From positions 20,969 to 84,968 of the forward strand of contig JAJEGY010000014.1 in NCBI GenBank assembly GCA_022819585.1: a DNA stretch of 64,000 nucleotides, given 5' to 3'. Below the pieces are notes generated by a model. That model was not told the DNA's origin. It worked only from the letters and a program-made list of their open reading frames with translations, and ran no database searches. Shown here in pieces: positions 8,226-50,645 of this stretch. A program made the position numbers and the translations under genes. The stretch is from Dehalococcoidia bacterium. GTDB taxonomy: Bacteria > Chloroflexota > Dehalococcoidia > Lucifugimonadales > Lucifugimonadaceae. Positions within the stretch are counted from its first letter, which is position 1; each line of letters begins with the position of its first letter.

Positions 8226-9157
8226 GGGTTCAACTCGCCGGAGGTAATCAGAAGTTCGTACATTATGGCGTGATGAGTGTTTTTCATCGCGACTTTTGCC
8301 AGATGGAAATGTCGGTTTGTAGCCATTTCGATCACGTCTGGGTTTTCGTCGTAGGTCATCATGAAGGGACCTTGGACCATAGCCGTGTGGTCGAAGAGTG
8401 ATTCGTGGTCTATTTCGTTGAAGTTGTAAAGGCGGGTTCCAGCGCGTTTTCCGGCGACAGTGTAGGGGGGATCGATGAAATAGGCTGCCTCAGCACTGTC
8501 TTGAGTGCTGCCAATCAGTTCGATGCCGTCGCCTTCTACGCATTCGAAACGCGAAGCGCATCTGCTGATCGCCCTGATTCTTTCGGCGATTGTTTTGGCG
8601 TACCAACGCGAGGCTATGCCGTTGCCGTTCTCCCCTCTGTTCATTCTGGATGCCCCTTTTGCGATAATGCCACCGCGATTCACCCGATTCTTTAGGAGGG
8701 TTTGGAATGCGGCATCGAGACCGTTGGTCGGCTCGCGTTCGAACTCTCTACGAACGTCGTCGGGGCTTGGCGTGAAGCGTTCGACTCTTCGCGCTAAGGT
8801 CTCCCCGTCTTCAAATATGCAACGCCAGAAGTTTGCCAGCTCGGGGTCTTTTTCGCCAAGGATCGCGCGGTCGACGAATCGTTCCATTACGGCAGTGAGC
8901 GAAGCGACTGCCCCACCCGCGAACGGTTCGATAAATATGGTTGGGCGAGGACTTAGACTGATCAACCAGTTGCGAATCTGCGGTATCAGCCATGTTTTGC
9001 CGCCGGGGTAGCGCAAGGGGCTACGTTGGGGGACAGATGCTACGTTGACGACTTTGTTCGAGAGGATGGGAATGTGCGATTGGTCGTCAATGTCGTGTTC
9101 ATGAGTGAGGGTTGTTTGTCGCTCAGGCGCTTTGGGTTTAGTGATGTGCAAAGTCAT
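8222..9157 (-). CDS. DNA N6-adenine methyltransferase, D12 (Dam-like) class
   Basis: 311 aa. Motifs present are PLRYPGGKTW, motif I FIEPFAGG and motif IV FIDPPY. Confidence 0.9.
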   Translation of the reverse strand: MTLHITKPKAPERQTTLTHEHDIDDQSHIPILSNKVVNVASVPQRSPLRYPGGKTWLIPQIRNWLISLSPRPTIFIEPFAGGAVASLTAVMERFVDRAILGEKDPELANFWRCIFEDGETLARRVERFTPSPDDVRREFEREPTNGLDAAFQTLLKNRVNRGGIIAKGASRMNRGENGNGIASRWYAKTIAERIRAISRCASRFECVEGDGIELIGSTQDSAEAAYFIDPPYTVAGKRAGTRLYNFNEIDHESLFDHTAMVQGPFMMTYDENPDVIEMATNRHFHLAKVAMKNTHHAIMYELLITSGELNP

Positions 9158-9327
9158 AAATCAGTGGTGCTGTGTCTTGAATGAGGTTGGTAGTTACTAC
9201 TACTCTATCGGGAAAGTTGGGTTTGGTTGATACGTGTTGGCAGAGCGAGGATTGTGGATTTGATCGGGGTGGGAAAGTCGTGACGGCATACCTTCAAAGT
9301 CCGGTGATTCCAGAAGGAATCGAGCGC

Positions 9328-10152
9328 TCAGTGCTGGCAGGTTGGGCAGTGGTAGGCGGTTCTGCCGGCGATTTTGGTGTTTTTGATGGGTTGGTGGCAG
9401 GTTGGGCAGGGGGAGTTGGGGATTCGGGTGATTCGCATTCGGTCGTCGTAGGCGTCCACTACGTAGGGGCTGCCGTCTTGGGAAGGGTGTGTTGAGATGA
9501 ATTGGATTGCGTGGTTGAGGGTGTCCATGATGTTGGCGTGGAGTCGGGTCAGGCGTTGGGTGCTGATGCGGTTGGCGCGTCGAAGGGGTGAGATGCCTGT
9601 TTGGTGAAGGGATTCGTCGGCGTAGATGTTGCCTACTCCGGCGATGATGGACTGATCTAGTAGGGCTGGTTTGATGCGGGATCGGCGGGTTCGTAGGCGG
9701 TTGGCGAATTCGTCGGGGGTTAAGTCCCATGGTTCGGGGCCTAGTTTAGGGTAGGCATCCTTGGGGTCGTCGAGGGCCCATAATTTGGCCCATCTTCGGT
9801 AGTCGTTCAGTTCGATGCGTCGATTATCGTCGAGATAGATGGCGGCGCGACGGTATTTGACGGGTGGATCGGAGGGGTTTCGGACGTGAAGTGAACCGGT
9901 CATTCCCATGTGCAGAACTAGATGAGATTGGGTATCTTGTTGATCGGAGAGAGTTGAGACTATGTATTTGCCGCGTCGTTTGATGGTGGCGATGCGCTTG
10001 CGGGAAACGCGGTTGGCGAAGGTTTCGATGTCGGCGGCAGGTGCGGCAATGGAGTCTGACCATCCGATTTCGACGCGGTGGATGGTGGAGTCAGGGATGT
10101 TTTGGGCTATGAGGTAGCGTTTTATGGATTCGACTTCTGGTAGTTCGGGCAT
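9328..10152 (-). CDS. mutM: Formamidopyrimidine-DNA glycosylase (Fpg/Nei family)
   Basis: 274 aa. It has the N-terminal catalytic MPELPEVE, the H2TH block LLDQSIIAGVGNIYADE and a C-terminal zinc finger CPTCHQ...CPTCQ. Confidence 0.92.
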   Translation of the reverse strand: MPELPEVESIKRYLIAQNIPDSTIHRVEIGWSDSIAAPAADIETFANRVSRKRIATIKRRGKYIVSTLSDQQDTQSHLVLHMGMTGSLHVRNPSDPPVKYRRAAIYLDDNRRIELNDYRRWAKLWALDDPKDAYPKLGPEPWDLTPDEFANRLRTRRSRIKPALLDQSIIAGVGNIYADESLHQTGISPLRRANRISTQRLTRLHANIMDTLNHAIQFISTHPSQDGSPYVVDAYDDRMRITRIPNSPCPTCHQPIKNTKIAGRTAYHCPTCQH

Positions 10153-10193
10153 GGGAACTATATGGTAGACCCTGTTTAGCTAGGGAGTCGCAA

Positions 10194-10285
10194 GGTTTCG
10201 GAGTGGTGGCTGTTTGCGGTGCCCCTCCCATTTGTCCGCCCCGGTCACCCTCACCCTGGCCCTCTCCCGCTGAGCGGGAGAGGGG
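10194..10285 (+). repeat. Family-1 intergenic repeat, copy B
   Basis: The core gtgcccctcccatttgtccgccccggtcaccctcaccc lies at 10219-10256. It is followed by the perfect hairpin ccctctcccgc-tga-gcgggagaggg at 10260-10284. Confidence 0.8.
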
Positions 10286-10407
10286 ATTTTATTCGTGGTG
10301 GGTAAAGGTGTTAGTTATTGGTCCGCGTTTCTTTAGTTGGCGAGCGGGAAGAGATTCTAAACCCCCTTGTATTCCCCCTTGAGCATCAAGGGGGAGGAGA
10401 TATTGGC

Positions 10408-11502
10408 CTACTGTCCTCGGGTGCCGGGGGTGTTGGCGTCTTGTTGGAGGAGAGTTTCGGGGCCGATTATTAGGTTGTTTGGAGGGTTGCCGCCGAATGC
10501 TATTGCGGCCATGCCTTGGGTGATGTCGGAGATGGTGCCGGGGTTGGTGGTGATGATGCTGGAGTCTTCGTTGGCGGTTAGGCGGAGGGTGCCTTGGGTG
10601 GTTTCTACGGTGATTTGTTGGTCGTTGATTTCGGCGATTGTGCCGTTGATGTTGGAGATGTTTGTGGAGTCTTCGTTTAGACCGAAACCACCGCCGAAAA
10701 GTCCGCGGGGTCCGAGAAAACCTTGGTCTTGTTGTTCGGGTAGGACTGTGAGGTTGAGAATGAATATGCGTCCACCTTCGCCTCTTTGGACGGTTCCGGC
10801 TACGTTTGTGTCTACGGAGAGGTCGGCGGGGGTGAGTTCGCGGATGACGGTGATGTTGGTGCTGTCGGTGATTTCGATGTCGGTGGATAGGCCGCTGTCG
10901 TCTGAGTGGTCGATGGTGACGGTTGAGCCAGAGATTGCGGAGATTGTGCCTTGGGTTGGAGGAGTGCCGAAGCCTCTGCCTTGGCCGCCGCCGGGGGCTT
11001 CGATGCCGGCTTCGGCTAAGAGTTCCTGCATCAGTTCTTGCATTCGGGCTTGTTCTTGTTGGGTGATGTTGCCTGATTGGGCTTTCTGGAAGAGTTCGGC
11101 GAGTTCGGGATTTTCTGCCATGGCTTCTTGGATGATGGCCTGGAAGTTTCCGCCGCCGGGACCTCCGCCTCCTGCGCCGAACCCGCCTCGACCTCCTGGG
11201 GCGGCTTGGGTGGATTCGGTTTCGGTGTCTTCGGATTCTTGATCGGGGGTTTCGTCTAGGGTTGTGCTGACTTCTGGTGCTTCGGTTGGTTCGGCGGGTT
11301 CTGTGGTGGGTGTTGGTTGGGCCGTATCGCGGGAGAGGGCTTCGTTGCGAGACGACGGGGTTGGTAGGTCGGATTGGGAGGCGACGGGGATGGTTTCTTC
11401 GTCAGTGTCGTCGGTAGGTTGGAGGACGATGATGACGACTGCGGAGATTACGATGCCGATGACGGCTGCGATCACTAGGAGAATTGCGAATGGGTTTTTC
11501 AT
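10408..11502 (-). CDS. Secreted or membrane-anchored Gly-rich acidic protein with two beta-rich repeats (DUF5666-like), last gene of the ABC/MFP operon
   Basis: 364 aa. It has an N-terminal TM/signal anchor, a P/T/E linker and GGRGGFGAGGGGPGGG and GGGQGRGFG tracts. Two similar segments are present (GTISAISGSTVTIDH... and NGTIAEINDQQITVETTQG...). Confidence 0.65.
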   Translation of the reverse strand: MKNPFAILLVIAAVIGIVISAVVIIVLQPTDDTDEETIPVASQSDLPTPSSRNEALSRDTAQPTPTTEPAEPTEAPEVSTTLDETPDQESEDTETESTQAAPGGRGGFGAGGGGPGGGNFQAIIQEAMAENPELAELFQKAQSGNITQQEQARMQELMQELLAEAGIEAPGGGQGRGFGTPPTQGTISAISGSTVTIDHSDDSGLSTDIEITDSTNITVIRELTPADLSVDTNVAGTVQRGEGGRIFILNLTVLPEQQDQGFLGPRGLFGGGFGLNEDSTNISNINGTIAEINDQQITVETTQGTLRLTANEDSSIITTNPGTISDITQGMAAIAFGGNPPNNLIIGPETLLQQDANTPGTRGQ

Positions 11503-17894: not shown

Positions 17895-18602
17895 ATGTGG
17901 GCATTGACGATTGCTGGCGGGCGTGGTGAGCGGTTGCAGCCGTTGACGGACAATATCTGCAAGCCGATGGTGCCTGTGAATGGGGTGCCGTTATTGCAGC
18001 ATCAGGCGAGTTGGCTTCGCGCGAATGGGGTTACGGACATCGTGTTTCTTACCGGCTATCGGGCTGAGCAGGTTGAGGAGCATTTCGGGGATGGGGCACG
18101 GTTTGGTTTCAGGGCCCACTACTCGTCGGAGGAGACGCCTTTGGGTCGAGGGGGGGCGGTCAAGCAAGGGATGAGATTGGTGCCTGAGGATGTGGAGGAT
18201 GTGATTGTTGTGAATGGGGATGTTTTGACGGACCAGTCGTTGGCACCGTTGATCGAGGCTAGGCGCGAGCACGGGGCTAGGGCTGCGATCACGTTGATAC
18301 CTTATATCAGTCAGTTCGGGGTTGTTCTCGTCTCGGATGATGATGTGGTGACGAGTTTTGCGGAGAAGACGGAGTTGCCGTTTTGGATAAATGGCGGGAT
18401 TTATGTGTTGGAACGAAGGCTTGAGGGCTTATTTCCGGACGTCGGGGACCATGAAGACTCGACGTTTCCGCAGATAGTTGCCGAGGGTGGGATGAGGGCG
18501 ATCAGGTCGAGCGCGAATTGGATCTCGGTGGACAGCCACAAGGACTTGCGGCAGGCAGAGGAGATGATGTCTCAGGAGTTGTTGCCGCGCTCCATCATTT
18601 GA
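17895..18602 (+). CDS. Sugar-phosphate nucleotidyltransferase (NTP_transferase family)
   Basis: 235 aa. The N-terminal LTIAGGRGERLQPLTDNICKPMVPV is the G-x-G-x-R-L signature. NGDVL and INGGIYV blocks are also present. Confidence 0.85.
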   Translation: MWALTIAGGRGERLQPLTDNICKPMVPVNGVPLLQHQASWLRANGVTDIVFLTGYRAEQVEEHFGDGARFGFRAHYSSEETPLGRGGAVKQGMRLVPEDVEDVIVVNGDVLTDQSLAPLIEARREHGARAAITLIPYISQFGVVLVSDDDVVTSFAEKTELPFWINGGIYVLERRLEGLFPDVGDHEDSTFPQIVAEGGMRAIRSSANWISVDSHKDLRQAEEMMSQELLPRSII

Positions 18603-38398: not shown

Positions 38399-38821
38399 CT
38401 AGCGCATCAGGTTGGTGAAGCCTTCTTGGACGAAATCGCGGTCGGTTGTGACTACTTCGTCGATGCCATCGCGGCGCATGATGGTCATTCCGACGCAATC
38501 TACCATGCTGTAGCGCTTGTCGTGGCGACTTTCGTATAGATCCAGGGCGTCGTTGTACAGGCCACGATCGACTATCTCAACGCGGTATTTCGGGTCAGCC
38601 AAGGCACGTCTGACAAATCTAGCCACCTCTCGCCTCGTCCGAGAACCGCTCCGGCTGTAATGAGCAAGCAACTCGTTCATGACGTCACGTGCGCAACCCA
38701 AGCGGACGTTGTCGTCTGCAACGAATGCGTTGTACAAGTCCCATGCGGCCAACCATCCGTTGTCACTCGAGTCGAATAGGGCGATCAGAAAACCCGAGTC
38801 AACGTAGATCACTCTTCCCAT
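38399..38821 (-). CDS. vapC: PIN-domain toxin (VapC-like)
   Basis: 140 aa. It has the N-terminal VIYVDSGFLIALFD, MVDCVGMTIM and TTDRDF acidic residues. It overlaps the upstream small gene by 13 nt. Confidence 0.85.
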   Translation of the reverse strand: MGRVIYVDSGFLIALFDSSDNGWLAAWDLYNAFVADDNVRLGCARDVMNELLAHYSRSGSRTRREVARFVRRALADPKYRVEIVDRGLYNDALDLYESRHDKRYSMVDCVGMTIMRRDGIDEVVTTDRDFVQEGFTNLMR

Positions 38822-39183
38822 GGGTATTTGTCGCGCTTAGGAAAACCGTATAGGTAGTGCTTGTAATTCAGCGAGCCGTCATGTGGCATCGCGTCTTTCT
38901 CTTCCTGCGGGATGTTTGACCACAACACTTTAGCCAATCCACCCAAGTGCCCAGGCAAGAACTCCCCATCCCGAACAAATACATGATCCGCGTCGGGCAA
39001 CCGCGCCTCTAACGCTTCGAGCGCGACGTATCCATCCTCATCAACTTCATACTCGCCGGTGTTGACGTCGATGACCACCCACTGGCCGTTGAGCGTGTCG
39101 CCAAGTTCGTCCTTGATGCGCTCGTGATACATCTTCTCGGCGGTTTCGATCGCCAAGTTGTATCGATTTTTCTCCGAAGACAT
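38809..39183 (-). CDS. Putative antitoxin (DUF5678-like N-terminal domain plus a C-terminal ...HYLYG.PK tail)
   Basis: 124 aa immediately upstream of the PIN gene. It contains NGQWVVIDVNTGEYEV (a DUF5678-like pattern) and the C-terminal LNYKHYLYGFPKRD. Confidence 0.6.
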   Translation of the reverse strand: MSSEKNRYNLAIETAEKMYHERIKDELGDTLNGQWVVIDVNTGEYEVDEDGYVALEALEARLPDADHVFVRDGEFLPGHLGGLAKVLWSNIPQEEKDAMPHDGSLNYKHYLYGFPKRDKYPWEE

Positions 39184-41429: not shown

Positions 41430-41903
41430 ATGCCCAGAACACCAGAATCGATAGTTACAGCGCTTGTAAATAGGAATGCCAGAGTAACGGCTCCGCGTCG
41501 CGAGATCATCGACTGCATCTCTAAGGTTCCGCGCACATTCACCGCCGAGGATGTTTGCGCACAGCTTCCGCATATAGGTCGAGCCACCGTTTATCGAACG
41601 CTGAAGATACTGCAAGACTCGGACATCATTTGCAAGGTGGTGATGCCCAGCGACGAGATGGCTTACAGTGTCTCTGCCGACCTTGATCAGGAAACAGGTC
41701 TCTCGCGGATACCTGTGCACCACCATCACGCAGTTTGTACTGTCTGCACCGCGGTCCGATACTTCAACGCCGAGGCAATCGAACGCGCTATCCACGCGTT
41801 GAGCGGATCCGTGCAGGGCGTTATGGGAGAAATAATCGACCACCGCATCGAGGTATACGACATCTGCCCAAGGTGCGTGGCCCAAAATCCAGAAACTGAA
41901 TAG
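41430..41903 (+). CDS. Fur-family metalloregulator (Zur-like by context)
   Basis: 157 aa. It has the wHTH block ATVYRTLKIL, a HHHHAVC..C motif and a C-terminal CPRC structural-zinc pair. It starts 4 nt after the E1-beta stop. Confidence 0.85.
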   Translation: MPRTPESIVTALVNRNARVTAPRREIIDCISKVPRTFTAEDVCAQLPHIGRATVYRTLKILQDSDIICKVVMPSDEMAYSVSADLDQETGLSRIPVHHHHAVCTVCTAVRYFNAEAIERAIHALSGSVQGVMGEIIDHRIEVYDICPRCVAQNPETE

Positions 41904-42098: not shown

Positions 42099-43298
42099 AT
42101 GACTTCGACACCTCGCCAGCCGACAGAAGAGTCGCAGCATCGTCACCATGATCATGCGGACCATGATCACTCCGGTCATTCGCACGGCCACGACGATCAC
42201 GCTCACGACGAACGCAGCCATGACGATCACGACCACTCAGGTCATGACCACCACGATCATTCCGGCCACTCGCATGGTCACGACGATCATGATCACTCTG
42301 ACCACGAACACGGCCATGACGATCACGATCACTCAGGTCATGATCACCATGGTCACGGGCAAGACCACCACGATCATTCCCACGATTACCGCGAGGCAGG
42401 GCGACGAAGCCTCCTCATCTCCCTGTTCCTGATAGGCGGCTTTATGATCGCCGAGTTGATCGGCGGTATCCTATCCGGTTCTCTGGCGCTGCTGGCTGAT
42501 GCAGGGCACATGATCACCGACGCGATGGCGATCGCGCTGGCTTTGTTCGCATTGTGGATAGGCGATCGTGTCGAAGATGCTGGTCGAACTTACGGTTTCC
42601 GGCGCGCCGAGGTCCTCGCCGCTGCGATAAATGCCATATCGCTCTGGATTATCGTCGCCTGGATCTTCTTTGAGGCGTATCACCGGTTGCGAGGAATCGA
42701 AGATATCCACATCGAAGGCCCGTTGATGCTGATCGTCGGCACACTAGGTCTGATTGTGAATATCGCCGCGGCGTGGATATTGCACAGTAATTCGGAACAC
42801 AGCTTGAATGTGGAAGGTGCTTTCTGGCACGTCATGGGTGACTTGATGGGTTCAGTTGGTGTCGTCATCTCAGGCATCGTGATCATCACCACCGGATGGG
42901 TATTGATCGACCCGATCTTGAGCGTCTTGATCGGGCTGTTGATACTTTGGAGCTCGTGGGGCCTCGCCAAGAAGGTCGTGGCCGTTCTACTTGAGGCAGT
43001 GCCAGCACACGTTGATGTCGAGAAACTGTGCGATGAGATCGAGGACATGCCGGGAGTCGCACTCATACACGACGTTCATGTCTGGACCATAGCGTCAGGT
43101 TATGAAGCCATGACCGCGCACGTCCTCGTAGATCCAGACTTGGCCAAGGAACAGACCGACTTCATACTCAGACACATTCGAGAGATCGCAACCGGAAAAT
43201 ATCACATCCACCATGTCACTATTGAAGTCGAGCAGACTTTGACCGGATGCACCGAGAACCACCTGGTCAGCCATCTGCTGCAGAGGCAGACTTTTTAG
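42099..43298 (+). CDS. Cation diffusion facilitator (CzcD/ZitB-type) with a His-rich N-terminal tail
   Basis: 399 aa. Residues about 14-96 are almost only H/D/S/G. Then come six TMs with LLADAGHMITD (the TM2 metal site) and FWHVMGD (TM5), followed by a C-terminal cytoplasmic domain. Confidence 0.92.
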   Translation: MTSTPRQPTEESQHRHHDHADHDHSGHSHGHDDHAHDERSHDDHDHSGHDHHDHSGHSHGHDDHDHSDHEHGHDDHDHSGHDHHGHGQDHHDHSHDYREAGRRSLLISLFLIGGFMIAELIGGILSGSLALLADAGHMITDAMAIALALFALWIGDRVEDAGRTYGFRRAEVLAAAINAISLWIIVAWIFFEAYHRLRGIEDIHIEGPLMLIVGTLGLIVNIAAAWILHSNSEHSLNVEGAFWHVMGDLMGSVGVVISGIVIITTGWVLIDPILSVLIGLLILWSSWGLAKKVVAVLLEAVPAHVDVEKLCDEIEDMPGVALIHDVHVWTIASGYEAMTAHVLVDPDLAKEQTDFILRHIREIATGKYHIHHVTIEVEQTLTGCTENHLVSHLLQRQTF

Positions 43299-43922: not shown

Positions 43923-46289
43923 GTGGACAATGTATCACAACTTAAGATTTCAAACAATGTTGCGAACTGTAACATAGCATCAATAAAGCCACTATCTTTA
44001 AGATACAACGTCTACTTTGGATTAATAACAGTGTTGCTGATGATCATCGGTTTCGGATCAGGCATCGTCGGACCTTTTGCCGAAAACGCTGTTGCCCAGA
44101 CTACTGGGATATGCGATCGAACTCCTGAAGTCGCCGACGCCATAGTCGCCGAAATCCAGAGCACTCGCCCCGAAGCGTCTTGTGCAGACATCACAGAAGA
44201 CGAGCTGGGTTCCATTGAAGGGCCCATCAGCATCAAACCTTCCGCGCTCAAAGCCGGTGACTTCGCCGCGCTGACAGCACTGACGGAGCTGAAGATCGCG
44301 GGCTCCGGTTTGATCCTGCTTCGAGCCGGCACATTTACGGGCTTGGACAACCTGGAGACTCTGGAGGTCCAAAGCCCCTCTCTCTCCACTATCCACAGCG
44401 GCGCGTTCAGTGGTCTTCCGAGAATCAAGACCCTACACTTGCAGGGCAACAACATCAAGGCCGTGCCGCGAGACATTTTCGACGGTCTCGGAACCTTGGA
44501 AGCGCTGAGTTTGTACGGCAACCGGATCGGCTCGTTGCCGATAGGCATTTTCTCAGGCTTAGAGCAGTTGAGAACTCTCGACCTGCACACGGGCGGAGTC
44601 AAAAATCTGTCGCACGGCATCCTGACCGGTATGCCGAATCTCCGCGCTTTGCATTTCCGCAACGAGGCGACTGGCGTGCTTGAGAGCGGTGCTTTTATCG
44701 ATTTAGGAAATCTGCAATGGCTCTATCTAGAAGGTAGCGGCATCACCAAGATGGCTTCCGGCGCGTTTGCAGGACTTCACAACCTGCGGCGTCTCTACTT
44801 GAACGACAACCAAATCGTTTCATTGCCCCCAGGCGTTTTCAGGTATCTGAAAAACATCACCCATCTGCACCTGCACGGGAACGCGCTGGAGACCTTGCCC
44901 AGCGGGACATTCAACGGATTGGACCAGTTGAGGGAGCTCTTCCTCCACGACAACAACATCAAGCGCCTACCGGCAGACATCTTTCAAGGATTAGATTCGC
45001 TTGAAACTATCCACCTTGATAGGAACCAGCTGACCGAGGTGCCAAACGAACTCGTCAAAGGTTTGACTAACCTGAAGGACCTGACTTTCTTCCACAACCA
45101 ACTTTCAGACGTCCGTGGATTTGACCTTTCGGACCAAGTCAATCTCAGGAACATCGACTTTGAGGGCAACATGCGGGCGGGGATGCCTGAAGACCTCTTC
45201 GTCTCGCCGCCTTGTTCGCTACGGGTCGTAGGGATCGACGGAAACGAATTCGGCGAATTGCCCAGCGCGACAATCGATGGTGTCAAATACGGGATTTTGG
45301 ATGTCTTGCCGCAACCATCTACGCAAGGCTGCAAACCCGACGATGGCATCACCGATCTCTGGGTAGACGGCATATCGTTGGCCTCTGATGATCTGGCGAA
45401 GATCCGTGATGACTTCTCCAAGTTGGAGTGGATCTCGATGCCCGAGACCGGGGCGACTAGCGAAGCAGTGATCGATTTCCTTGCCAACCGATCGTCAACC
45501 GCTCTCGACGGTATTGACCTATCGTCCAACGACTTGAGCGATTGGAACAGCATAGACCGCGACGCGATGCTCGAAGCCATCAAAAAGAACGAAAACCTCG
45601 TTACGTTGCGCCTGTCCCATATCGGCATCAATGGCGATACCGCGATTGCGATACTCGAAAACGCGGAGCCTGGCTTGCGCCGAGTCGATTTCTCTGAAAA
45701 CGATCTCAGCGGCTGGAACGATCCCGAAGTCCAAGACCAGTTGGAGGCAGCTTTTTCCCGGTTGCCGAAATCGGAATGGTGGTTCGTTGAGCTCAACGAT
45801 ACCTCCATCGACTCAACAGCCGCGGGAACTATCCTGACGAACGTGGCCAGAGCCTCTGGCGAACGTAACTTCGTCAGGATCGAACTCTCAAACAATGAAG
45901 TCACAGAGATCGATGCTTCATGGTTTGAAGAGTGGGAGGTATTGTCAGATCTGCACTTGTCCAACAACCAGATCACTACGTTCGATCCTGCAGTTCTGGG
46001 GCAGTTCGCGGACAGCCTCTACTACCTGTATCTAGATGGCAACCCGTTGGAACCCATCCCGTCAATGGAGGAGTTTGAAGCCGTTCTTCCGAACTTGATC
46101 GAACTCGAACTCCCCATACCTGAGGAGCCAGTTGAGATGGAAGAAGTCGTCCAGTTGCCCAGAACAGGTGGCGATTCTATGACCATCAACAACGCATTGC
46201 GGATCTTAGGGATTGGCTTGACGATTCTGGTTGCAGGAGCCATCCTGCTATCGATCAGGTCGCGGAGAAATCGCGGCATTCCCGTATAG
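43923..46289 (+). CDS. Cell-surface leucine-rich-repeat protein with LPXTG-type sorting signal
   Basis: 788 aa. It has a signal anchor (...AENAVAQT) and a Cys-containing cap (CDRTPEVADAIVAEI...C). About 13 typical 24-residue LRRs follow (LxxLxLxxNxIxxLPxGxFxGL), then RNI-like longer repeats. The C-terminus reads LPRTG plus a hydrophobic segment plus RSRRNR. Confidence 0.85.
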   Translation: MDNVSQLKISNNVANCNIASIKPLSLRYNVYFGLITVLLMIIGFGSGIVGPFAENAVAQTTGICDRTPEVADAIVAEIQSTRPEASCADITEDELGSIEGPISIKPSALKAGDFAALTALTELKIAGSGLILLRAGTFTGLDNLETLEVQSPSLSTIHSGAFSGLPRIKTLHLQGNNIKAVPRDIFDGLGTLEALSLYGNRIGSLPIGIFSGLEQLRTLDLHTGGVKNLSHGILTGMPNLRALHFRNEATGVLESGAFIDLGNLQWLYLEGSGITKMASGAFAGLHNLRRLYLNDNQIVSLPPGVFRYLKNITHLHLHGNALETLPSGTFNGLDQLRELFLHDNNIKRLPADIFQGLDSLETIHLDRNQLTEVPNELVKGLTNLKDLTFFHNQLSDVRGFDLSDQVNLRNIDFEGNMRAGMPEDLFVSPPCSLRVVGIDGNEFGELPSATIDGVKYGILDVLPQPSTQGCKPDDGITDLWVDGISLASDDLAKIRDDFSKLEWISMPETGATSEAVIDFLANRSSTALDGIDLSSNDLSDWNSIDRDAMLEAIKKNENLVTLRLSHIGINGDTAIAILENAEPGLRRVDFSENDLSGWNDPEVQDQLEAAFSRLPKSEWWFVELNDTSIDSTAAGTILTNVARASGERNFVRIELSNNEVTEIDASWFEEWEVLSDLHLSNNQITTFDPAVLGQFADSLYYLYLDGNPLEPIPSMEEFEAVLPNLIELELPIPEEPVEMEEVVQLPRTGGDSMTINNALRILGIGLTILVAGAILLSIRSRRNRGIPV

Positions 46290-46349: not shown

Positions 46350-47174
46350 TTAAGCGATCCGTCGTCTCAACGTAGCAACTATCGCGAAGATGATGCCGGA
46401 TGCCAAGGCTATCGATGCGCCGGACGGCAGGTTGCCGTAGTACGAGGTGTACAACCCGGTAATAGACGCGATAAGCGCGAACAGCACCCCGAACCCGATG
46501 ATGTGGAAGATCTTGTTCGCTGCGAGCGATGCCGCCGCCGCTGGTGCGATTAGCATCGCTAGCACTAGAATCACACCGACCGCCTGAATCGTCACTACGA
46601 TCACAACCGAGATCAGCGCCAGAAGCAGATAATCGATCCACCCAACGCGGATACCGGCCACCTCCGCACCAATAGGATCGAAGCTCACGAATACCAGCTC
46701 CTTGAAGTACCCGGCAAACACAAGCAACGTCAGCAACGCCACTCCCAACGTGACCAAGATGTCGCCTTCCGTAACTGCCAATATCTGTCCTAGCAGGATG
46801 TCTTCAAGGTTGACCGATACTTGCGACCCGAACAACGAGATCAAAACGATTCCGAGCGCGAATAGGCTCGCGAATAGGATGCCGATCGCCGCGTCGGCCT
46901 GAATACCCGTCTTGCGGATCAAGAATCCTATCAGGAACGCGAAGACAAGCGCCGCGGGCAGCATTCCGAACCAAGGGCTCAAACCCGCGATCAATGCCAG
47001 AGCCATCCCCGGGAATATCGAGTGCGCCATCGCATCACCCATGAAACCGTACCCGCGGGTGATCACGAAGACACCGACCAACGGGCATACGATGCTGATG
47101 ATGACCGCCACGCCGAGAGCGCGCAACATAAAGCCGTATTGGAACGGCTCGGCGATGTACGAAATCACATCCAT
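46350..47174 (-). CDS. znuB: Metal (Zn/Mn) ABC transporter permease, ABC-3 family
   Basis: 274 aa, polytopic. It has ABC-3-type blocks (FMLRALGVAV, GDAMAHSIFPG). Confidence 0.88.
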   Translation of the reverse strand: MDVISYIAEPFQYGFMLRALGVAVIISIVCPLVGVFVITRGYGFMGDAMAHSIFPGMALALIAGLSPWFGMLPAALVFAFLIGFLIRKTGIQADAAIGILFASLFALGIVLISLFGSQVSVNLEDILLGQILAVTEGDILVTLGVALLTLLVFAGYFKELVFVSFDPIGAEVAGIRVGWIDYLLLALISVVIVVTIQAVGVILVLAMLIAPAAAASLAANKIFHIIGFGVLFALIASITGLYTSYYGNLPSGASIALASGIIFAIVATLRRRIA

Positions 47175-47196: not shown

Positions 47197-47985
47197 TCAA
47201 ATCGAGTATGTGCTTTCAGCAGATACCACGTGAGGGCCGTAAAGCTCTTCCAGCACATCGGGAGTGAAGGCATCTTCCGGCGGTCCCCAAGCGCAGACAT
47301 GGCCGTTGAGACACAGTACCAGATCCATGTTCCGCGCCATGTTCGCCAGATCGTGAGTCGAAAGCAGTATCGTCTGCCCCTCCTCGCACAGCCGCCTCAA
47401 CACCGCAACCAGCTCGTACTGCGAACCGACGTCGACTCCGCTGAACGCTTCGTCCAGCAGCAGGACTCTCGCGTCTTGCGCCAAAGCTCGCGCCACAAAC
47501 ACCCGTTGACGTTGCCCGCCCGACAGCGAGTGGACGAGTTCATCCTTGCGATGCAGCAATCCCACTCGGTGCAAAGCATCCATCACCGCGTGCTTATCCG
47601 TAGTCGACTCGTACCGGAAAGCTCCCAAACTGGGCGTCCTGCCCATCATCACCACATCCCACACCGTAACCGGAAACTGCCAGTTAACATCCTCCGATTG
47701 CGGGACATACCCGACCAGTCCTCGGGACCTCGCCGGGTCGATGCCGTAGATGTGCACTGATCCGGCAGTAGGCTCGATAATACCGACCAACGTCTTCAGC
47801 AAGGTCGACTTGCCCGCACCGTTTGGCCCCACAATCCCCACGAACGCCCCTGACGGCACGGAGAAAGTCACGTCTTTCAATACTGTGTTCTCTCCGTACG
47901 TGACGCGCGCTCTGTGCGCGTCAACCGCCGGCAGGGGAGCCGTGTGCGTCTCTAGCTCGGGATCGTGGTGGCCGGGATGGTTCAT
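47197..47985 (-). CDS. znuC: Metal ABC transporter ATP-binding protein
   Basis: 262 aa. Walker A is GPNGAGKST, the signature is LSGGQRQRV and Walker B is LLLDEAFSGVD. Confidence 0.9.
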   Translation of the reverse strand: MNHPGHHDPELETHTAPLPAVDAHRARVTYGENTVLKDVTFSVPSGAFVGIVGPNGAGKSTLLKTLVGIIEPTAGSVHIYGIDPARSRGLVGYVPQSEDVNWQFPVTVWDVVMMGRTPSLGAFRYESTTDKHAVMDALHRVGLLHRKDELVHSLSGGQRQRVFVARALAQDARVLLLDEAFSGVDVGSQYELVAVLRRLCEEGQTILLSTHDLANMARNMDLVLCLNGHVCAWGPPEDAFTPDVLEELYGPHVVSAESTYSI

Positions 47986-47997
47986 CTGCCTTTATTT

Positions 47998-50565
47998 TTA
48001 TTCCTCCAGTGCGCCAACAATGATACCCACGTTCGTGCGCATCAAATCGATGTACGTCGCCGCGCCGCTGTCGTCAGCGCCAAGCGAACCCACATGCAAT
48101 CCGCCGACGAATCTGATCCCCGCTTCCCGCGCCAAAGTGTTCGCAAGTCGATCACTGAGTTGCGCCTCCGCGAAGACGACGGATGCACCTGCCTCCTCCA
48201 CCTCATGGACAAGCTCTGCCAACTCCTGAGGCGAACGCTCCAACTCGGTGCCGCCGCCGGGGATGATCACTCCAGCGATCGTGAAACCGAACCGGGCGGC
48301 GAAGTACCCGAACGCATCGTGGGTTGTCACCATGATTCGGTCGTGATCGTCGATTACTGAGACGCTGTCCGTTATCCAGCCATCCAGCTCCTCGAGCTTG
48401 GCGATGTACGCATCACGGTTTGCGTTGTAGTAGTCGGCGGAGGCCGGGTCTATCTCCCTCAACTCCTTTGCGATCTGCCGCACTGCAACGATCACGCGCT
48501 CAGGGTCGAACCAGAAGTGCGGGTCCAGCGCGCCGTGCCCATGCCCGTCATCTTCATGGTGGTGCTCGACCTCGTCTTCGGCGTGGTCCTCATCTTCATC
48601 CTCATCGCCGTGGCCTTCGCCCTCGTCACCTTCGGCATCTTCGTCCTCGTCACCGTGATGCTCTTCGCCCTCGTCCTCGGCGTCTTCATCCTCGTCATCA
48701 TGATGCCCTTCCTCGTCAGCATCTTCCTCCTCGTCGTCATGATGCTCGCCCTCTTCCTCCTCGTGGTCGTGGCCCTCTTCAGGATGGTCTTCCGACGACA
48801 CAATGCCCACAAACGCGAGCGAAGACGGCGTTCCGTCGACTTCCCACTCTTCGGCAACTTCCATGTGGTCGAGATCGAACGCTATGATGTGGCGGTTCGC
48901 TTTATCAGTGAAGAACAGCGTCTCACCTACGACGATGAGGTTAGGTGCACCATCCAATCCCCCCATGGGATCGATCGGATCGATCATTTGCGCCTCACCG
49001 ATCAAGTCGCCATCGGCGGCGTCGATCGAGTTCAACATACCGTCATGAGTGAGAACGTAGAGAACGGATCCGTCGCTGCTGAATGCCGACGTCAAACTGT
49101 TCTTGGTTTCTGACGGAGCTAGAACCTCCACCATCTCCTGGTGTTCCGGATCGATCATCCAAATACCAGCGTCTCCGAATCCCCCGGGTCCAACCGTTAC
49201 GGCCTTACCGAAGAAGTTCGCTGCATCTTCGTGGCCCCACAGCGTACCGACGCGTGCTGCCTCAGGCATACCTTCGCCGTTCTCTATGAACCAGTGCTCG
49301 AATTCATCGTCGTGCTGCTCGATGAACAGCACACCGCCGATACAGCCATAGATCGAACCGTCGTGGTTGTGCGCTTCACCGTGCATCCCTGGACAGCTTT
49401 CGCGACTCTCGTCCCACACGACTTCATCATTGAGGTTCCTGATTTCGACACCGATCGGCAGGGCGTCATCAGGATCCGGGTTCTCAACAGTCACCGCAAA
49501 GAGATCGTTCTCGATCGGAACCGCAGCTCCATGTTGCGGCCCGGCATCGAGATAGGGAATCTCGTACGCGTGACCCTCCTCCTCGATCTCGTGCTCGTTC
49601 ATCAACGCCACACGGCCAGAGCCGTCGTGGAAGATCGCAGACCATTCCCCTCCGTTCGTGAAGTGGATCGGCCGATCGTCGTTGATGGTCAAACCAACCT
49701 CGCTAACAGGCACCACAACCAAATCTTCGTGATCCCCATGCGGCACCAGCAACACTCCGCCGTCAATCACGTGGACCGCATGATCGCCAGCATCGCCGCG
49801 GTATATCGCATAGCCATATCGATGACTCGGGCTCGCGTAAAGCGCCGAGACAGGTCCAGGTAGACCAAGGTCGAACTCTGAAACCTCCTCGGTCATCAAA
49901 TCAACCACCATCACATGGTTCGAATCCGCATCGCCCACCAATAACCGACCAGTCAAGGTCGCCTCCGCCTCTTCGCCGTGCCCCATGGCCTCGCCCTCTT
50001 CCGCATGATCATCTCCACCCTCGAAACTGAACTCAATCGGGTCGATACGCTGGCCGAGTTCAATGACAGCCTCGTGGTCAGCAGCCGCATTATCGATCAG
50101 ATCCTCCAGCCACTGCTGCTCCAATGACAGACCAACCGCGAAAACCACCTCAGCATCGGCAACTCTCGCAATGTCTCGTGCACCAGGTTGATACCCGTGC
50201 GGGTCTACGCCGCGCGGAACCAGATTCAGCACATCGACTCGATCGCCACCTACGATTGAAACCCACTCCCCTACGATGTTGCTGGTAGCTACGATATTCA
50301 ACGGCTCGGCATCAACCACTTCCACTACTGGTTCAGGGGTTGCCGTGGGCGGCACCGCGGTTGCCGTAGGTTGCTCCGGCGCGGTAGTGGCTGCCGCCGC
50401 TTGTTGCGGAGCAGTGGTTGCTGTAGGCTCAGGTAGCGGGGTAGATGTCGGCTCAGGGTCTTCACTACACGCCACCGCGGCCGACAAAACCAACACGGAC
50501 ACAGCTGCCAAAAGCCATACCCGTACTATCGTTTCCAAACGCATCCTTTGGGAGATGCTCTTCAT
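47998..50565 (-). CDS. znuA: ZnuA/TroA-family metal-binding lipoprotein with a roughly 500-aa insertion (beta-propeller-like domain plus His/Asp/Glu-rich tract)
   Basis: 855 aa with a signal peptide and Cys33 lipobox-like AAVAC. The N-lobe reads LNIVATSNIVGEW...VDPHGYQP. The C-lobe reads LDPHFWFDPERV...VTTHDAFGYFA...VFAEAQLS. Residues about 203-589 (folded insert) and 590-678 (acidic/His tract) separate the two lobes. Confidence 0.85.
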   Translation of the reverse strand: MKSISQRMRLETIVRVWLLAAVSVLVLSAAVACSEDPEPTSTPLPEPTATTAPQQAAAATTAPEQPTATAVPPTATPEPVVEVVDAEPLNIVATSNIVGEWVSIVGGDRVDVLNLVPRGVDPHGYQPGARDIARVADAEVVFAVGLSLEQQWLEDLIDNAAADHEAVIELGQRIDPIEFSFEGGDDHAEEGEAMGHGEEAEATLTGRLLVGDADSNHVMVVDLMTEEVSEFDLGLPGPVSALYASPSHRYGYAIYRGDAGDHAVHVIDGGVLLVPHGDHEDLVVVPVSEVGLTINDDRPIHFTNGGEWSAIFHDGSGRVALMNEHEIEEEGHAYEIPYLDAGPQHGAAVPIENDLFAVTVENPDPDDALPIGVEIRNLNDEVVWDESRESCPGMHGEAHNHDGSIYGCIGGVLFIEQHDDEFEHWFIENGEGMPEAARVGTLWGHEDAANFFGKAVTVGPGGFGDAGIWMIDPEHQEMVEVLAPSETKNSLTSAFSSDGSVLYVLTHDGMLNSIDAADGDLIGEAQMIDPIDPMGGLDGAPNLIVVGETLFFTDKANRHIIAFDLDHMEVAEEWEVDGTPSSLAFVGIVSSEDHPEEGHDHEEEEGEHHDDEEEDADEEGHHDDEDEDAEDEGEEHHGDEDEDAEGDEGEGHGDEDEDEDHAEDEVEHHHEDDGHGHGALDPHFWFDPERVIVAVRQIAKELREIDPASADYYNANRDAYIAKLEELDGWITDSVSVIDDHDRIMVTTHDAFGYFAARFGFTIAGVIIPGGGTELERSPQELAELVHEVEEAGASVVFAEAQLSDRLANTLAREAGIRFVGGLHVGSLGADDSGAATYIDLMRTNVGIIVGALEE

Positions 50566-50609: not shown

Positions 50610-50645
50610 ATGATACCACGTATCGTAATGATACTACGTATCGTA
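50610..50645. promoter_or_regulatory. Two tandem 18-nt units, each containing the palindrome GATACnACGTATC. This is a candidate metalloregulator operator in the znuA / methyltransferase divergent promoter.
   Basis: The units are atgataccacgtatcgta | atgatactacgtatcgta. The junction TCGTAATGATAC resembles the Bacillus Zur half-site TCGTAAT. The site lies about 45-80 nt upstream of the znuA ATG. Confidence 0.45.

Follow-up and report, generated by a model that had tools for sequence, protein, structure and literature searches.

The AztABCD system of Paracoccus denitrificans combines AztC, a cluster A-I substrate-binding protein (SBP), with AztD, an eight-bladed beta-propeller; the two are separate periplasmic proteins and belong to Proteobacteria. 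AztD gives zinc to AztC associatively, from a site (site 2) located on an extension formed by its N- and C-terminal strands, by way of a transient complex whose formation is slow and rate-limiting and whose geometry is known from a docking model only, in which the D-loop of AztC lies inside the AztD pore (PMC6689063, PMC7463823). This transfer requires the D-loop, residues 117–133 of AztC (PMC7463823), and the His residues within it (PMC6689063, PMC7463823). The AztD-to-AztC transfer is among the few characterised direct protein-to-protein zinc hand-offs. ZnuA proteins such as those of Escherichia coli and Synechocystis combine a His/Asp/Glu loop with a three-His metal site that lacks an Asp ligand. 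In AdcA of streptococci, a surface lipoprotein of monoderm bacteria, a zinc SBP is covalently linked to an accessory domain that recruits zinc and supplies it to the SBP site (PMC6689063, PMC7858048). Here we examine a 64,000-nucleotide stretch of DNA from a Dehalococcoidia bacterium (hereafter the window), in which the open reading frame (ORF) at 47998–50565 on the minus strand encodes both of the AztCD modules, with the predicted AztD propeller placed inside the SBP as a permanent intramolecular partner rather than making transient contact as a separate protein. Judging from the sequence and a structural model, the gene probably encodes the SBP lipoprotein of a zinc ATP-binding cassette (ABC) importer of a Dehalococcoidia-like member of the Chloroflexota, in which zinc is handed within one chain from the nested propeller to the SBP.

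The nested propeller and its host lobes

The ORF encodes 855 amino acids in a single uninterrupted frame with an ATG start, and an AGGAG Shine-Dalgarno sequence is located approximately 9–13 nt 5′ of the ATG. Two SBP lobes were recognised at residues 85–182 and 679–855, with a 496-residue insert between them. The N-lobe (50020–50313, minus strand), identified by PF01297 and AztC matches, carries the ligand His123 (VDPH). The second part (48001–48531, minus strand), identified by PF01297, AztC, and PDB matches, consists of the SBP backbone helix and the C-lobe and carries the ligands His683 (LDPH) and His749 (TTHD). PF01297 (ZnuA) was the only family detected in a Pfam scan of the protein, and it was matched in two separate stretches (239.5 bits versus a cutoff of 29). 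SBPs of known structure in the PDB matched the lobes with E-values down to 1e-33, and in Foldseek the lobes matched YfeA, AztC, MntC, and PsaA. A first-pass annotation, made by reading the DNA, had placed the insert at the position of the flexible His-loop of ZnuA, and alignment to P. denitrificans AztC (PDB 5w56) bears this out. Residues 86–196 align with chain 1–108 and residues 667–853 with chain 96–283, so that both edges of the insert map to one AztC segment, chain 96–110, which corresponds to D-loop residues 117–133 (23-residue offset). Because both edges fall on this segment, the insertion point is assigned to the D-loop, the loop by which AztC accepts zinc from AztD. The motifs that had been quoted in support of the lobes (VDPHGYQP in the N-lobe and LDPHFWFDPERV in the C-lobe), along with all of the strand-like motifs quoted for the insert, were found in the ORF, and the nucleotide positions assigned to the two parts of the insert were correct.

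The first of these parts, residues 204–589 (48799–49956, minus strand), was assigned as an AztD-type beta-propeller from NCBIfam, PDB, and Foldseek matches. The NCBIfam AztD model (NF038015) matched residues 253–586 over profile positions 30–354 of 356 (E=3.1e-37, 128.1 bits), and in the PDB the AztDs of Citrobacter koseri (6cmk, E=2e-30) and P. denitrificans (6ck1, E=1.8e-17) were matched; the propeller is 22–26% identical to the solved AztDs. An AlphaFold2 model of residues 84–855, for which an alignment of 80 family sequences was supplied, has a mean predicted local distance difference test (pLDDT) score of 80.7, and the insert (model residues 121–506) is modelled as all-beta with a pLDDT of approximately 90. 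In a Foldseek search against the PDB, ranks 1–9 were all AztD (6cmk, 6n01, and 6ck1; E-values from 5e-31 to 2e-25; target-normalised template modelling (TM) scores of 0.84–0.88), followed by SBPs, which matched the lobes, and then by generic propellers at approximately 1e-12 with poor TM scores. Other propeller families tried as candidates were insignificant, with E-values of 0.081 for Pfam PQQ_2, 0.16 for YncE (PDB 3vgz), and 0.12 for the YVTN repeat. Among propeller families, AztD is the specific relative of the nested domain. The proposal that the insert contains a beta-propeller related to AztD is thus upheld by the model, the searches, and the ligands described below; the folded domain is where it had been expected (residues 203–589), with its start refined to residue 204.

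The signature of P. denitrificans AztD consists of site 1, site 2, and a disulfide (PMC6689063). Site 1 (His124/His167/His218) corresponds to H301/H345/H395 in the nested propeller, site 2 (His99-Gly100-x-His102-x-Asp104) to H276-G277-D-H279-E-D281, and the disulfide Cys214-Cys231 to C391-C408, with a spacing of 17 in both proteins; C391 and C408 are the sole Cys residues of the propeller domain. Conservation of individual residues was examined in 80 relatives that are 47–85% identical to the 855-residue protein. The three site 1 His residues, H276, H279, and D281 of site 2, and the Cys pair are invariant in all 80, and Gly277 is present in 55. In AztDs, a C-terminal His (His408) that is 68% conserved provides the fourth site 2 ligand. 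The candidate equivalent is H594, seven residues past the last strand of the nested propeller, a position that is His in 43 of the 80 relatives; the HMMER alignment to 6ck1 stops before this residue. All structural criteria applied to the model, together with the retained site 1, site 2, and disulfide residues, identify the predicted domain as a genuine AztD-type propeller.

The second part of the insert is a His/Asp/Glu tract, recognised by its composition, at residues 590–678 (89 residues; 48532–48798, minus strand). It had been described as almost wholly His, Asp, Glu, and Gly; by count, 69 of the 89 residues are His, Asp, or Glu (78%), 16 of them His, with a net charge of −53. The tract is coded by degenerate DNA repeats and ends in H675-G-H677 before His683, and the corresponding tract is 15–94 residues long across the family. 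An addition to the earlier description is a second, short His/acidic linker ahead of the propeller (residues 183–203, 21 residues; 49957–50019, minus strand), the DNA of which is 72–81% similar to the repeat units of the long tract. The segments on both sides of the propeller (182–201 and 592–680) have pLDDT values below 50 in the AlphaFold2 model and are predicted to be disordered.

The SBP ligands H123, H683, and H749 are each invariant in the 80 relatives. Position 826, the equivalent of the ligand Asp279 of AztC, is Gly here and in 76 of the relatives, and Asp in the other four. Because the three His residues are kept and the Asp279 position is occupied by Gly826, the SBP metal site is predicted to be ZnuA-like, with three His ligands, and not AztC-like. 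H675 and H677, just ahead of the ligand His683, are also invariant (80/80) and align to the distal part of the AztC D-loop. Residues 769–776 align without gaps to the AztC Z-loop (residues 222–229), the equivalent of Val224 being Gly771, and this segment of Z-loop length has low confidence in the AlphaFold2 model, as a flexible segment would. Two tested features place the protein outside AztC, namely a score under the curated cutoff of the NCBIfam AztC model and the missing Asp ligand; its giant His/Asp/Glu tract contrasts with the short loop of AztC. The position and composition of the loop are those of ZnuA, although here the loop houses a predicted folded chaperone domain of 386 residues, and the E. 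coli ZnuA model scored only 71.5 bits on the ORF protein. In AdcA the accessory domain is a ZinT lipocalin-like domain attached C-terminally, end to end, unlike a propeller nested in a loop. No Pfam or NCBIfam match to a ZinT domain was obtained for the ORF protein, and the AdcA model (NF033605) matched the SBP part only (98.7 bits versus a cutoff of 700). In principle of design, AdcA is the closest counterpart, although its accessory domain is unrelated to AztD.

The N-terminus was read as a signal peptide with a lipobox (residues 1–33, ...LSAAVA-C33; 50467–50565, minus strand). Within the family the Ala-Cys pair of the lipobox hardly varies, and nearly all homologs have the Cys. The putative lipid anchor would be connected to the SBP by a 51-residue stalk that is, by composition, rich in Pro, Thr, Ala, and Glu (residues 34–84; 50314–50466, minus strand), and such a stalk is also found in close relatives. 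In this respect the predicted lipoprotein on a Pro/Thr stalk differs from the periplasmic AztC and AztD.

Distribution and propeller copy number

The order N-lobe, AztD, C-lobe was found in approximately 100 of the best 120 database clusters. In an exhaustive HMMER scan of 50%-identity representatives, the complete nested architecture was recovered in at least 16 separate clusters, with identities as low as approximately 30%, and stand-alone AztD-like proteins were retrieved as well. Genomes were scanned using one genome per GTDB species, and the best 80 loci were kept; the nested gene is present in 79 of these, many of them on closed chromosomes. Nearly all of the 80 loci are from Dehalococcoidia/Chloroflexota (including SAR202-type and sponge-associated bins) or from Caldilineaceae, and one is from Acidimicrobiia. 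The occurrence of the same architecture in other genomes, which the first-pass annotation had suggested searching for, is thereby established. Two further database proteins, P0167 (1094 aa, AztD at 631–1005) and P0193 (680 aa, AztD at 291–670), have an AztD-like propeller at the C-terminal end of a larger protein; SBP lobes were not detected in either, and they represent other AztD fusion architectures.

These counts bear on the authenticity of the fusion, which could in principle be an artefact of chimeric assembly or of two or three separate genes joined through an error of sequencing or reading frame. The window is probably derived from a metagenome, and the repetitive DNA that codes for the His/Asp/Glu residues in this region can mislead assemblers. 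An artefact is nonetheless so improbable that it can be disregarded: the ORF is one unbroken run of 855 codons, the SBP fold would be incomplete without both flanks, GC content is continuous across the insert junctions, and the nested order recurs in the database clusters, the 50%-identity clusters, and the genome loci counted above. The design turns up again in numerous independent genomes, closed chromosomes among them, which excludes a mis-join.

A description of an AztC-AztD fusion or of a nested AztD domain was not found in the open-access library searched, in keeping with the initial impression that the nested architecture is undescribed. For the 10 clusters checked no name was found, and one JGI label, "ZnuA", was the only label encountered. 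The precomputed Pfam annotation consists of PF01297 with at most PQQ_2. It had been allowed that the protein might belong to a widespread family that is already annotated; the family does occur widely in sequence databases, yet neither Pfam nor NCBIfam flags the AztD domain that it carries. The nested design is widespread in sequence data and apparently undescribed.

Relatives at the orthologous locus carry zero, one, or two propellers. Six proteins of 1054–1376 aa (P0002, P0008, P0025, P0026, P0028, and P0033) have two tandem propellers in the SBP loop. In P0002, P0008, P0025, and P0033 the two copies are 92–99% identical within a protein and 46–62% identical between lineages, which implies independent recent duplications, and in P0026 and P0028 the copies are 60–65% identical. 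Two-propeller relatives were also observed at loci L006, L036, and L040. At the other extreme, seven close relatives have no propeller and only a His/Asp/Glu loop of approximately 120 residues, with lobes that are 84–98% identical to those of the 855-residue protein; loop-only relatives such as P0057, P0065, and L077 are in essence ZnuA proteins with a very long loop. L077, which is on a closed chromosome, is syntenic with the window over all 14.5 kb compared and shares its downstream transporter genes and upstream palindrome, with the propeller segment of approximately 1.2 kb alone being absent. In a neighbour-joining tree calculated from the lobes only and without bootstrap, the forms that have just the loop are scattered among those with one propeller, and this pattern suggests several independent losses or exchanges of the propeller. 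The His/Asp/Glu-coding repeats that flank the propeller module are 72–81% similar to each other and are, from their sequence, a plausible substrate for recombination.

A tblastn search with the three segments of the gene detected no paralog within the 64-kb window. Several other genomes contain two family members each: OX638325.1 (L035 and L077), OZ241919.1 (L018 and L066), OZ219949.1 (L021 and L067), and CATOSD010000001.1 (L023 and L036). In OX638325.1 the pair consists of the loop-only form L077, which is closely related to the gene of the window, and a distant nested paralog of 933 aa, L035. The paired family members suggest functional redundancy, which may permit loss of the propeller.

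Proposed zinc hand-off and competing readings

In the proposed mechanism, the polyanionic His-rich tracts would gather Zn2+ at low affinity, the propeller would take up this zinc tightly, and site 2 would hand it via H675-x-H677 to the three-His SBP site of the same chain; the long disordered linkers would then let the propeller swing away and the loaded SBP dock on the permease. Since the termini of the propeller are the fusion junctions, and site 2 of AztD is on an extension of the terminal strands, insertion into the D-loop would put site 2 beside the SBP cleft. Fusion would turn a slow meeting of two molecules into an intramolecular event, raise the effective concentration of the chaperone, set a 1:1 stoichiometry, and stop the chaperone from diffusing off a cell in which an outer membrane is probably lacking. 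More tentatively, the nested propeller might make the SBP a self-loading relay of tract, site 2, HxH, and three-His site; the number of propellers (zero, one, or two) might be a fast-evolving trait, driven by recombination between the flanking repeats, that tunes the zinc-scavenging capacity of Chloroflexota populations to habitat; and the protein might at the same time be a natural single-chain trap of the transient AztC-AztD complex, opening zinc transfer between proteins to direct structural study.

His-rich loops of ZnuA proteins have been proposed as sensors, and the nested propeller could likewise be something other than a donor: a zinc buffer or store, a sensor, or a lid. It would then either hold zinc at the cell surface or control entry to the SBP site, for instance by keeping the SBP off the permease under zinc-replete conditions. 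Its location at the mouth of the cleft and its copy number of zero, one, or two, which fits a capacity-type function, are compatible with such a role. The role of AztD site 1 is unsettled even in characterised AztDs, and AztD knockouts pointed to a role in periplasmic zinc accumulation (PMC6689063). We nevertheless consider a non-donor propeller unlikely, as site 2, from which transfer has been demonstrated experimentally, is invariant and situated where the propeller joins the SBP, and the conserved HxH beside SBP ligand 2 suggests a relay; moreover, storage and transfer are not mutually exclusive.

If the importer were instead specific for another metal (Mn, Fe, Co, or Ni), the propeller would have been re-tasked for that metal. 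The model for Deinococcus MntC scored almost as high on the SBP as that for AztC (233 versus 246 bits), the best NCBIfam match of the ATPase is MntA, the Asp that serves as fourth ligand in AztC is absent, and the Fur family spans Fur, Mur, Nur, and Zur, subtypes that the NCBIfam matches of the nearby regulator do not separate. Set against these observations, the third SBP ligand is His (TTHD), the aligned zinc ligands of AztD sites 1 and 2 are all kept, the best match of the permease is AztB, and a neighbouring gene encodes a ZitB-like zinc exporter that has a His-rich tail. Manganese and iron SBPs typically have Glu as the third ligand, an all-His site being the zinc signature of cluster A-I SBPs, and His/Asp/Glu loops are characteristic of zinc SBPs. 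A different metal is accordingly given a small probability, slightly below that of a non-donor propeller.

Several observations weigh against a zinc importer with intramolecular hand-off, the interpretation that we prefer. The NF038015 score of 128.1 bits is under the curated cutoff of 400, such that the propeller is not called AztD by the NCBI rule. The AztC model NF040870, although the best SBP model at 246.4 bits, is under its curated cutoff of 350, with the Deinococcus MntC model close behind. The predicted TM score of the AlphaFold2 model is 0.56, so its inter-domain geometry carries no confidence. The existence of propeller-free close relatives at the orthologous locus means that some genomes, at least, can do without the propeller. 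Zinc binding, the direction of transfer, and metal specificity are properties that we infer for all members of the family. Finally, the link between regulator and operator discussed below is circumstantial, and a scan for sigma-70-like promoters 5′ of the SBP gene found none, a scan that is uninformative for Chloroflexota.

An AztD domain goes unflagged in hundreds of database proteins that are called "ZnuA" at most, and this annotation gap matters for how zinc acquisition is read in the genomes of SAR202-type bacteria, Dehalococcoidia, and sponge symbionts. The fusion of the two partners at the D-loop is an independent line of evolutionary evidence for an interaction centred on the loop, and a fused protein would be a stable single-chain object for crystallography, cryo-electron microscopy, small-angle X-ray scattering, and kinetics of intramolecular transfer. 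Keeping the chaperone on the SBP may be a general answer for cells that lack a periplasm, reached in streptococci by fusing ZinT to it and in Chloroflexota by inserting AztD into it. With zero, one, or two propellers at an orthologous locus, nature supplies its own controls for judging the contribution of the chaperone.

Operon, candidate operators, and neighbouring genes

The SBP gene is followed on the minus strand by the second gene of the operon, which encodes a 262-aa ABC transporter ATPase (47197–47985; PF00005, E=1.9e-31), and by the third, which encodes a 274-aa ABC-3 family permease (46350–47174; PF00950, E=8.3e-63). The best NCBIfam match of the permease is AztB (196.6 bits), and the ATPase matches MntA best and AztA-like models as well, so that both are closest to or near their AztABCD counterparts. 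This arrangement of SBP followed by ATPase and permease is kept in approximately 45 of the 80 loci. A convincing terminator was not found 3′ of the permease gene. In the closest one-propeller relatives (L001, L002, L004, and L005) the ATPase gene is followed by two permease genes in a row (at approximately 9100–11000 of each locus), each 81–91% identical to that of the window; the window and L077 have one permease gene only.

Two tandem 13-bp palindromes, GATAC-N3-GTATC, are located at 50612–50624 and 50630–50642, 59–77 nt upstream of the ATG. They were spotted by eye and then counted by motif search, their arms being below the minimum seed of the inverted-repeat search. The motif occurs twice in the window versus 0.03 occurrences expected by chance, and the exact motif is present in 18 of the 80 homologous loci, almost always at most 350 nt upstream of the SBP start. 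The extended consensus, TGATAC-N3-GTATCA, has the outer TGATA/TATCA half-sites and the 15-bp length of classic Fur-family boxes. Additional copies were found at 8294–8306 in L007, downstream of the SBP gene, and at 1575–1587 in L074, approximately 0.5 kb upstream of the SBP start, and may mark further regulon members. A near-perfect palindrome at 18295 in the window is inside a nucleotidyltransferase coding sequence and was dismissed as chance.

A Fur-family regulator of 157 aa is encoded 4.4 kb from the operon (41430–41903, plus strand; PF01475, E=1.7e-17), a further association shared with AztABCD. By tblastn (E-values from 1e-7 to 1e-19), a Fur-family gene is immediately upstream of the nested SBP gene in approximately 30 of the 80 loci; the match in the window is the one confirmed with Pfam. 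The palindromes are a candidate operator of a Fur-family (Zur-like) repressor, by which the operon is probably repressed, and the regulator at 41430–41903 is a candidate Zur for the operon.

Directly downstream of the Fur-family gene is a gene for a ZitB-like cation diffusion facilitator (CDF) exporter (42099–43298, plus strand; PF01545, E=5.7e-42; TIGR01297; NF002923 ZitB, 250 bits). Its N-terminal extension of approximately 90 residues consists almost entirely of His/Asp repeats (HDHxDHDHSGHSHGHDDH...). With the CDF gene beside the Fur-family gene and near the importer, genes for uptake and efflux of the same metal would be clustered. The interval from the CDF gene to the transporter operon contains a gene at 43923–46289 on the plus strand for a 788-aa leucine-rich-repeat protein (LRR_8, E=1.2e-66). 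At the C-terminus of this protein, LPRTGG is followed by a hydrophobic helix and then by a basic tail, which together constitute a sortase-type cell-wall sorting signal. The lipobox of the SBP and this LPRTG signal are consistent with a surface-exposed, monoderm-type setting, and on the strength of the lipoprotein anchor and the neighbouring sortase substrate the host cell probably lacks an outer membrane. Further away, two small overlapping ORFs at 38399–39183 on the minus strand (124 and 140 aa) have a toxin-antitoxin-like layout, the second appearing PIN/VapC-like by eye.

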